Shown here piece after piece: positions 57,940 through 59,640 of a DNA stretch of 64,000 nt. Below the pieces are notes generated by a model. That model saw nothing but the letters and a program-made list of their open reading frames with translations, was not told where the DNA came from and did not search any database. Location: UHGV virus genome UHGV-1378516; one strand, written 5' to 3'. The translations under genes and the position numbers were made by a program. Every line of letters starts with the position of its first letter. The stretch's first letter is position 1. Origin of the DNA: a virus.

Positions 57940-58260
57940 ACTCACCAGCATCACTTAAGAGTCTTTTAAAAGGGTTTTTAAGTGATGTTTGGTTAGGTAT
58001 GGTTGGGTGGTGTGAGGTCAGGTTTAGTTTGGTCTGGTAAGGTATGGGTAGTTAGTCTCAGCTACATTAAAATGAGACTTACCTTTTTAAAAGGTCTTTA
58101 GAGAGGGTCTTTTAATAAGGTCTGGTCGTGTCCGGTTCGGTAGTGTTGGGCTTGGCTTGGTCTGGTCTGGTAAGGGTGGATGGTAGTAGCCACGTTAAAA
58201 ATCTACCAAGTTTCTAAAGAGTCTTCTGTTGAGGGTTCTTTACAAACAACTTAACAATCA
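57940..58260. repeat. composite non-coding module A: palindrome CACTTAAGAG...TTAAGTGATG, GGT-rich tract, AAAAGGTCTTTAGAGAGGGTCTTTTAAT box
   Basis: Second copy at 59320-59640. Confidence 0.55.
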
Positions 58261-58268
58261 ACTAAAGT

Positions 58269-58871
58269 GTGGAGCTAAATGCTATGAAACTGTTAAATAT
58301 CAAAATCACTGGTACTCGTCCTTTCCTGAGCCATGCAGATACTCTGTCAGACCCATTAAACCCTCTGACAAAATATCACAAGTCTCTGTCCAGTAAACGT
58401 AAAAAGACTGACGAAGACTATGCGCTCTTAGCAGAAAGCCAACTGGTAACCTCTTGTTACTACGATGAGCAGCTAGGTTTTGTTATGAACGGTGAGATGA
58501 TTGAGGCTTGTATCAAGTCTGGTGCAAAACTCAACAAACTTGGTAAGGTAATTGACCGAGCCATTATGCTGACAGATGTAGTCTTCCCAATGACTATCAA
58601 GAACTGTCCAGCAAACCCACAAGAACTTGCTAAGAATCCAGACTTTATCTATGCTAAGTCTGTTAAGATTGGTACAGCACGAGTTATGAGCTACCGTCCA
58701 ATCTTCCGTGACTGGTCTGTAGAGTTCGGTTTGATGTTCGATGAAGAGCAAATCACCAAAGAGGAACTCTTGATGGTTCTGGAAAATGCTGGTAACCTTT
58801 GTGGTGTAGGTGATTGGCGTCCACGCTTTGGTCGTTTTTCTGTAGAAGTTATTTCAGAAGGTAACGTTTAA
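58269..58871 (+). CDS. hypothetical protein (about 195-200 aa)
   Basis: ORF track. Confidence 0.5.
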
Positions 58872-58873
58872 TT

Positions 58874-59314
58874 ATGAATACAAAAGCATTAGCAGCAAAG
58901 TTCAGTTACGGTGACACTGTATCACATTCTGAGATGGACACCTTCTTAGGTATTGTGAAGCCAACTTATCAAGGTGACATTGTTAAGTACGAAGATGAAA
59001 TGAAGGCTTATGCACTTACACGACTAAACCGACTTGAGAAGTTTATTGAAAAGCTTCTTAAAGAAGAGAAGATTTATCTGGTTGCTTCAATGGGTGTTGG
59101 CTATCGTGTGGTTGAACCTAAACATCAAGCAACTATTGCAAAACGTAAAATGTCTGGTAAGATTGGTCGTGCTTTAAAGCAAGCCACTCAAGCGATTGAG
59201 AATGTGAACACTATGGCACTTAGCCATCAAGAACGCTCACGACTGATTGAACAGCAAAACCATTTAGCTGCTATGAAAGCTAACATTAACAAGCAACGTA
59301 GAAAACCTTTCTAA
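58874..59314 (+). CDS. hypothetical protein (146 aa)
   Basis: ORF track. Confidence 0.5.
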   Translation: MNTKALAAKFSYGDTVSHSEMDTFLGIVKPTYQGDIVKYEDEMKAYALTRLNRLEKFIEKLLKEEKIYLVASMGVGYRVVEPKHQATIAKRKMSGKIGRALKQATQAIENVNTMALSHQERSRLIEQQNHLAAMKANINKQRRKPF

Positions 59315-59325
59315 GTTGACTAGGT

Positions 59326-59349
59326 AGCCTCTTCGGAGGCTCCTTTTTA
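59326..59349 (+). terminator. rho-independent terminator
   Basis: Hairpin AGCCTCTTCGGAGGCT followed by CCTTTTTAAAA. Confidence 0.65.
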
Positions 59350-59640
59350 AAAGGTCTTTAAGAGGGTCTTTTAATGAGGTACGGCGCGGTTAGGTAAGGT
59401 CTGGTAGGGTAGGGTGAGGTTTGGTAAAGTGCGGGTAGTTAATCGGAGCTACATAAAAATTCGATTACATCACTTAAGAGTCTTCTAAGAGGATTTTTAA
59501 GTGATGCTCGGTCGGGTTTGGTAGGGTTTGGTAGGGTGTGGTTCGGTATGGTGTGGTTTGGTGTGGTATGGTATGGAAGGATGGCAGTAGCCTTATAAAA
59601 AATCTGCCAAATAAGCTATAAAATCTGTTGACAAGTCAGG
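59350..59640. repeat. composite non-coding module B (second copy of 57940-58260 module)
   Basis: GGT-rich tract GGTTTGGTAGGGTTTGGTAGGGTGTGGTTCGGTATGGTGTGG; palindrome CATCACTTAAGAG...TTAAGTGATG. Confidence 0.55.

Follow-up and report, generated by a model that had tools for sequence, protein, structure and literature searches.

The Viral Interference Programmable Repeat (VIPR) system was described in two bioRxiv preprints of April-June 2026 (10.64898/2026.04.26.720920 and.720927), which reported a minimal RAMP protein, Vipr, together with guide RNAs (vrRNAs) of ~100 nt in which 9-16 YNNGG repeats are followed by a conserved 3' tail, a pseudoknot in the SUSP1 clade. Small-RNA sequencing, pull-down with Vipr, and GFP and plaque assays on SUSP1 revealed programmable DNA silencing, and the guides of this clade were found to mostly target a satellite in the genomes of Escherichia coli (the same two preprints). 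VIPR is remarkable in that a phage carries a minimal RAMP protein whose guides follow a discontinuous code, and it has been suggested to be a forerunner of the CRISPR effectors. Here we analyzed a window of 64,000 nucleotides of the virus genome UHGV-1378516, which was assigned to Felixounavirus (a Felix-O1-like myovirus), and found that the segment 57891-59661 is almost certainly a complete type II VIPR locus of the SUSP1 clade. The locus is bounded by a DNA ligase gene (56745-57884) on one side and the next operon (from 59701) on the other, and consists of the gene pair vipr (58284-58871) and vap1 (58874-59314) in addition to four guide units of the same grammar, two upstream and two downstream. 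Unless stated otherwise, all features of the window given below lie on the + strand.

Sequence search of the PDB revealed that the 195-residue product of vipr matches chain D of PDB 36pp, the SUSP1 Vipr protein, with an E-value of 8.5e-129. It is identical to SUSP1 Vipr at 192 of 195 residues (98%), and is accordingly assigned as the RAMP-like protein that polymerizes on vrRNA. Of the nine residues that contact the RNA according to the preprint, eight are present, namely H17, E71, M72, R138, C173, D177, W178 and R179. The ninth, “T175”, said to line the pyrimidine pocket (bioRxiv 10.64898/2026.04.26.720927, section 5), is a valine both in the window and in SUSP1 (KT454805.2), and “T175” is probably a numbering or typing slip of the preprint; the local sequence reads C173-G174-V175-G176-D177 (window 58794-58808, Vipr residues 171-175). 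The product of vap1 (146 residues, phrog_5926) is identical at 145 of 146 residues (99%) to that of the SUSP1 gene directly downstream of vipr, and its assignment as the VIPR accessory protein, which enhances silencing, is taken from the preprints (bioRxiv 10.64898/2026.04.26.720920 and.720927). Pfam gave nothing significant for either protein, and PHROGs placed both only in families of unknown function. A two-gene unit at 58269-59314 had already been recognized in the original prediction, but the likeliest start of the first gene is ATG 58284, which gives 195 residues as in the homologs, rather than GTG 58269. The same prediction had linked the flanking modules to the genes they bracket, a link that now finds its explanation as VIPR guides accompanying vipr-vap1. 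As the protein matched a solved Vipr structure, the ideas of an R-loop origin or switch region, a TRAP- or CsrA-like sponge and boxA/nut antitermination were dropped. Nor does the locus belong to CRISPR-Cas: it has no repeat-spacer array and only two genes, neither from a Pfam Cas family, the rest of the window not having been scanned for cas genes.

Each of the four units consists of a leader box of ~25-40 nt, a tract of NNGGY pentamers and a tail of ~35 nt. Upstream of vipr the order is P1 leader, vrRNA1 (vr1), A1 tail, P2 leader, vrRNA2 (vr2) and B1 tail, whereas downstream of vap1 it is P2 leader, vrRNA3 (vr3), A2 tail, P1 leader, vrRNA4 (vr4) and B2 tail. The vrRNA1 (57989-58083) has 12 repeats (57989-58048) with the NN code TT TA AT TG GG GA CA TT TT CT AA AT, followed by an A1-type pseudoknot tail (58046-58083). 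The vrRNA2 (58117-58207) also has 12 repeats (58117-58176), reading AA CT CG CC TC AG TG TT TT CT CT AA, and a B1-type tail (58174-58207). Downstream, the 12 repeats of vrRNA3 (59376-59466; repeats 59376-59435) read GA AC GC TA AA CT AG AG GA TT AA GC and end in an A2-type tail (59433-59466), and the 14 repeats of vrRNA4 (59508-59608; repeats 59508-59577) read TC CG TT AG TT AG GT TC AT GT TT GT AT AT and end in a B2-type tail (59575-59608). The palindrome, the box, the conserved element and the GGT tracts that had been predicted in this segment are thus all present, far beyond chance, although the supposed two copies of one module resolve into four units, two per side, whose order differs between the sides. 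Moreover, the predicted periodicity of 5-6 nt gives way to a strict one: the pentamer register is exactly 5 nt in all four tracts.

These tracts stand out from the rest of the window, as had been predicted. The + strand has a mean of 0.85 GGT per 60 nt, compared to 8-12 in the four tracts, and nowhere else on the + strand of the 64 kb does the density reach 7. When both strands of the 64 kb were scanned with a detector of the pentamer register, no further tracts emerged; hence equivalent GGT tracts are not dispersed over the window. The two regions do align with each other beyond chance. Besides the tracts, GGT is enriched at a single site of the window (63924-63988, - strand, 7 GGT per 60 nt), which is out of the 5-nt register and unrelated to the VIPR locus. 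Analysis of 55 unique repeat tracts (647 pentamers) from 22 Ounavirinae loci revealed an information content of 0.05 and 0.10 bits at N1 and N2, compared to 1.30, 1.87 and 1.52 bits at G3, G4 and Y5, respectively, with the Y position being exclusively T or C. The GGY is therefore conserved and the NN hypervariable across the tracts of the clade. The GGT tracts are almost certainly the repeat regions of guide RNAs of ~90-100 nt, which would be transcribed by analogy to SUSP1, for which transcription was shown. Rfam 15 gave no family match in 57900-59650 at E<=1, the vrRNAs being not yet a curated family.

Two readings of the tracts as DNA sites bear on this pattern. One takes them as G-quadruplex- or R-loop-prone hotspots, nicking sites, an origin-like region or a promoter/enhancer array, and a strong promoter indeed precedes the tracts, which lie on the non-template strand, a geometry that favors R-loops. 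However, a conserved GGY at an exact 5-nt spacing with free NN is what the protein-RNA contacts of SUSP1 call for, and not what a G-quadruplex or a hotspot needs, making this reading highly improbable. The other takes the repeats as iteron- or centromere-like sites for a partition or plasmid-stability protein. In its favor, direct repeats in two clusters that flank a small operon formally resemble parC/ParR loci, and the record of phage KhF3 (KT184315.1, 86014-86024; locus L001, 3177-3187) carries the annotation “direct repeat sequence4 possible binding site of StbAB”. Yet the period of 5 nt is not the helical iteron spacing of 9-11 bp, the locus has no gene for a ParA-, ParM- or StbB-like NTPase, and the bracketed protein is Vipr, leaving hardly any probability for partition sites; the KhF3 annotation, which is speculative and predates VIPR, is probably wrong.

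Further support for guide RNAs comes from the tails. The conserved element of the form GTAGTTA..AGCTACA..AAAAT noted in the original prediction is indeed conserved, and can now be identified as the 3' pseudoknot tail of the vrRNAs. There are two types of tail, the A-type on internal units and the B-type on the last unit of each array, both of which fit an H-type pseudoknot. In the A-type tails 98.7% of cells are paired, and stem 2 has three compensatory pairs (AGUCUCA/UGAGACU versus AAUCGRA/UUCGAUU). The B-type tails have 97.2% paired cells and show compensatory changes of two pairs in stem 1 (GUGG/CCAC versus AAGG/CCUU) and of one pair in stem 2 (GGUAG/CUACC versus GGCAG/CUGCC). By contrast, slid controls, in which the 3' partners were shifted by 1-3 columns, gave only 28-50% of paired cells. 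This computed structure agrees with the tail pseudoknot of SUSP1 seen by cryo-EM (VIPR preprints, bioRxiv 10.64898/2026.04.26.720920 and.720927), and a covariation of the tails as RNA pseudoknots is a further argument against sites that act as DNA. GenBank records of other phages, which predate VIPR, annotate these tails as terminators, probably wrongly.

The NN codes could be decoded on the satellite. A BLAST search with the SUSP1 gene beside the tape-measure gene against complete E. coli genomes revealed a related “phage baseplate protein” beside a tape-measure gene in at least 474 of 5426 genomes. The satellite islands are 11-12 kb long and have two serine recombinases (one large and one small), often in addition to a Dam-type methyltransferase and an HNH gene, with a tape-measure and a baseplate gene that have relatives in Felix-O1-like phages (for example, locus L028, 5500-17300; also L029-L037, all E. 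coli chromosomes). They are mosaic between strains and integrate at yciI-tonB, a split DUF72 gene, ymdF-wrbA or lafU-dinB. We scanned the 55 guides of the clade against eight satellite islands at a threshold of at least 80% NN match, which is that of the preprint. With one skipped target base between dinucleotides, 41 of the 55 guides reached the threshold, compared to 3, 3 and 2 guides at skips of 0, 2 and 3, respectively, and 3 shuffled guides. As positive controls, SUSP1 vrRNA1 and vrRNA2 gave 21/24 and 28/32.

Three of the guides in the window pass the same threshold. The best 1-nt-skip target of vr1 (20/24, 83%) sits immediately downstream of a satellite promoter (TTGACA-N17-CATAAT), and that of vr3 (21/24, 88%) lies another ~250 nt along this 5' leader. 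The satellite operon downstream of the two sites has the tape-measure and baseplate genes at its end. The best target of vr4 (25/28, 89%) is in the gene of the large serine recombinase, as is that of vr2 (18/24, 75%). In every coding target the skip bases fall at codon position 3. Altogether, the guides in the window aim at the satellite, vr1 and vr3 at the promoter-proximal leader of the tail operon, and vr4 and probably vr2 at the recombinase gene. Self-targets are absent from the window, where the best match is 17/24. As the guides point at a satellite whose tail genes are related to those of such phages, the locus can be regarded as a weapon of the phage against its own parasite. The target of vr3 lies within the loop of a long perfect inverted repeat in the tail-operon 5' leader (TTCAGTTTTTAAAAAGCACAC ... 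GTGTGCTTTTTAAAAACTGAA; L036, 6985-7075, and L030, 10530-10625), which may act as a regulatory RNA structure or be bound by a protein.

The decoding also weighs on a reading in which the GGU-repeat transcripts act as sponge RNAs that titrate an RNA-binding protein of the host or the phage in the style of CsrB/CsrA or TRAP, with no sequence-specific target. Short motifs at a fixed spacing bound by an oligomeric protein do formally resemble those systems, but the hypervariable NN decode to the satellite far above the shuffled control, with the skip bases at the third codon position, and in the SUSP1 experiments reprogrammed NN changed the target specificity of a programmable DNA silencing (VIPR preprints). 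A sponge is thus exceedingly improbable. The same decoding, which predicts targets elsewhere and under one rule only, argues against sites acting as DNA. The originally suggested recombination hotspots, promoter/enhancer arrays, nicking sites and G-quadruplex DNA accordingly found no support, the SUSP1 experiments and the decoded targets favoring guide RNAs.

Two observations on guides outside the phage locus may be added. One satellite (L033, 2760-2950, - strand) carries a vrRNA of its own, with a consensus-like promoter (TTGACG-N17-TATAAT), ~13 NNGGY repeats, a B-type tail showing a compensatory change in stem 2 (GUCG/CGAC), and a strong terminator behind it. The unit lacks a leader box, and the fetched loci revealed no vipr. 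Some satellites had indeed been reported to encode vrRNAs (VIPR preprints). In IMG/VR, an exact-pattern scan gave no match for vr2. A match for vr1 (L040, 10 of 12 repeats exact) was judged to be due to chance: it lies in an 8.9-kb RNA-virus-like contig with an RdRP_4 domain, and ~0.1-0.2 matches are expected by chance for 20 specified bases at an assumed collection size.

Based on the mechanism shown for SUSP1 in the two VIPR preprints and on the near-identity to that system, we propose that the locus would work as follows. The arrays would be transcribed, and each vrRNA would nucleate a Vipr filament from its 3' pseudoknot. One Vipr protomer per repeat would sequester the GGY, so that the filament presents the NN, which would pair with double-stranded DNA, the GGY corresponding to one skipped target base. 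The resulting R-loop triplex would block transcription of the tail operon and the integrase gene of the satellite, a silencing that Vap1 is expected to enhance.

The leader box is the one part of the locus undescribed in the two VIPR preprints, the text of which makes no mention of a leader, an RNase or maturation, and it bears on the biogenesis of the vrRNAs. The palindrome and the box, which the original prediction had listed as separate elements, both exist but are two versions (P1 and P2) of one leader, of which there is in addition a fifth copy at 58210-58247. The box (~25 nt) has the form RGKYCTTT-loop-RGGGTYTTTT, which in the P1 version extends to an 18-bp hairpin. Its five copies are all on the + strand, one before each vrRNA and one before vipr, and it is absent from the rest of the 64 kb. 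Leader element 1 (P1; 57948-57988) is predicted to form an RNA hairpin of 18-19 bp (-18.2 kcal/mol, z -6.6), and element 5 (P1; 59468-59506) one of 18 bp (-22.2 kcal/mol, z -6.9). Elements 2 (58089-58113, with the box AAAAGGTCTTTAGAGAGGGTCTTTT) and 4 (59349-59372) are of the P2 version, the predicted RNA hairpin of element 2 being weak (-3 to -5 kcal/mol). The leader-like element 3 (P3; 58210-58247), which sits between the vrRNA2 tail and the ribosome-binding site of vipr, has a 12-bp hairpin core (UAAAGAGUCUUC-UGUU-GAGGGUUCUUUA; -13.6 kcal/mol, z -2.7) and is present in 21 of the 22 loci scanned. Among relatives, P1 keeps 17-18 pairs in 10 of 11 variants, and P2, which varies mostly in the loop, keeps its hairpin in 14 of 15 variants; as this hairpin is weak, the conservation of P2 lies mainly at the sequence level.

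Two simple explanations of the box were considered and set aside. A scan found no sigma-70 promoter inside the leaders, where only a weak TTAAAA-N17-TTTAAT could be picked out by eye in P2, and only P1 and P3 are predicted to form a stable RNA hairpin, the fold of P2 being weak and ambiguous. The solo vrRNA of the satellite, which lacks the box and has its own promoter and terminator, fits a role of the leader that is specific to arrays. Taken together, the conserved hairpin, the lack of a promoter, the restriction to the locus and the boxless solo vrRNA suggest that the box serves the arrays, probably as a boundary, processing or regulatory signal for biogenesis. A sharper version of this proposal, that the box is a dedicated array element, be it a processing or boundary signal that releases the single vrRNAs from a polycistronic transcript, an operator of Vap1 or a recombination joint of the cassettes, is tentative, and we consider it somewhat more doubtful than not. 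As such a joint, at which phages would swap, gain and lose cassettes, the leader box would be a functional analogue of the CRISPR repeat.

Several points weigh against our interpretation of the locus. Expression, Vipr binding and silencing in this phage are taken wholly by analogy from the SUSP1 experiments; grammar, tail structure, target code and the lack of self-targeting were computed directly here. With just two A-type and two B-type tail classes, the independent covariation events are few. The vr2 guide, at 75% NN match, stays under the 80% of the preprint, and the 10 sampled satellites contain no perfect target for any guide. BLAST searches with chimeras, in which the NN code of a guide was grafted onto the satellite site, gave no better variants for vr1, vr2 and vr4, and only a modest improvement for vr3. 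In addition, an alternative fold competes with the P2 hairpin, whose predicted thermodynamic stability is low.

Directly after the ligase stop codon lies a sigma-70-like promoter (TTGACA-N16-TATACT, 57891-57918; 11 of 12 consensus matches), which is kept in Felix O1 and likely drives the upstream vrRNA array together with vipr-vap. A terminator-like hairpin with a T-run follows vap1 (59326-59348, -13.6 kcal/mol), the sole site of this kind in the region, with its T-run abutting leader element 4. At the far end, the segment 59609-59661 forms a palindrome AAATAAGCTATAA...TTATAGCTTATTT followed by a T-run, an inverted repeat with 19-nt arms (AAATAAGCTATAAAATCTG / CAGGTGTTATAGCTTATTT), in which a second sigma-70-like promoter (59628-59656) is embedded such that the inverted repeat encloses its -35 box. 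The downstream array probably ends, and the next operon starts, in this segment, where the terminator of the vrRNA array and the promoter of the next operon seem to overlap.

Comparison with related phages, which had been suggested for the bracketed genes, proved informative, for both the number and the content of the units vary. Matches to the region were found in 258 phage records (80-99% identity), which nearly all belong to Felixounavirus or Suspvirus; vipr-vap is ~96-98% conserved at the DNA level in 118 records, and roughly half of the 258 lack it. Across the 22 Ounavirinae loci there are 1-3 vrRNA units per side, with NN codes essentially unrelated between phages. The vr2 guide recurs in L007 and the vr3 guide in L012, L014, L015 and L018, whereas none of the other 21 loci examined carries vr1 or vr4. 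As cassettes recur in varied combinations and the number of units varies, there is a turnover of cassettes on the evolutionary scale. The cassette exchange that the original prediction had considered thus holds as an evolutionary shuffling of vrRNA cassettes between phages, but has no mechanistic counterpart.

Salmonella phage Felix O1 (NC_005282.1, about 57700-57870; L039, 4700-4870, - strand) has lost both vipr and vap1. The stretch from its ligase gene to the following gene is reduced to the promoter, a P1 leader, a single degenerate vrRNA of ~11 pentamers, several with a broken GGY, and a B2 tail, such that the orphan guide is apparently the remnant of a deletion between flanking units. 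The varying number of units and a deletion that ends within the modules indicate that recombination occurs there, as expected for DNA-level hotspots, but it is also what any repeated sequence would give.

Guides and protein also stay together in more distant relatives. In metagenomic phage contigs with vipr homologs of only 37-40% identity, NNGGY arrays on the same strand again flank the gene, and the protein and the repeats are therefore linked over a large evolutionary distance. Some of these contigs are arranged differently. A 146-kb IMG/VR phage contig (L021, 3560-4600) has an array of at least nine units downstream of a 40%-identical vipr and a neighbor gene, each unit comprising a conserved hairpin of ~40 nt (GAACGAAGCCGCTTCGCAAGAGGCGGTTTCC...) and a G/T-rich variable segment of 45-55 nt; its pentamer register is too degenerate for the detector, and Rfam finds no ribozyme in it. 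This array may represent a different architecture of VIPR arrays. In L023 (3070-3560), a G-rich non-coding stretch of ~480 nt with repeated GGCAAGGTCAGAGGT motifs lies between the vipr homolog and the next gene; both here and in L026 (3053-3285) the arrays are located between the two genes and not outside. Rfam detected no hammerhead in the distant arrays.

Overall, the locus is an already-known system, a near-identical ortholog of the SUSP1 type example. As the discovery and mechanism of VIPR were published on a phage with 98-99% identical proteins, no new principle arises here. The present analysis provides an independent replication, from sequence only, of the GGY/NN grammar, the tail pseudoknot and the 1-nt-skip targeting of E. 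coli satellites. It also contributes four decoded guides with predicted sites in the leader of the satellite tail operon and in the integrase gene, the shuffling of vrRNA cassettes among Felix-O1-like phages with an orphan unit in Felix O1, and a locus-specific leader box.

The closest relative, the type II VIPR of SUSP1 (Escherichia phage phiSUSP1, KT454805.2; PDB 36pp), is likewise located between the DNA ligase gene and the operon that follows, and shares the NNGGY grammar, the A- and B-type pseudoknot tails, the leader boxes and the predicted satellite family. It differs in layout, with 1 + 3 units according to the preprint (1 + 2 with the present detector) compared to 2 + 2 in the window. 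Moreover, all four NN codes of the window differ from those of SUSP1. A further parallel is found in Vibrio phage ICP1, likewise a lytic phage with an RNA-guided system aimed at a chromosomal satellite parasite, PLE; in both cases the guide repertoires differ between closely related phage isolates. ICP1, however, uses a canonical type I-F system that degrades its target and acquires spacers, whereas VIPR represses transcription and has no known acquisition machinery. With the Cas7 filaments of Class 1 CRISPR-Cas, VIPR shares a RAMP-fold protein with a G-rich loop and a thumb that polymerizes on a guide RNA, bases flipped out at a fixed period, and a variable guide part capped by a conserved structured handle. 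Unlike Class 1 CRISPR-Cas, the VIPR locus has no repeat-spacer array, adaptation or nuclease genes and is encoded by a lytic phage; its period is 5 nt with three of five bases sequestered, its guides are read discontinuously (NN, skip 1), and its outcome is the silencing of double-stranded DNA via a triplex R-loop.

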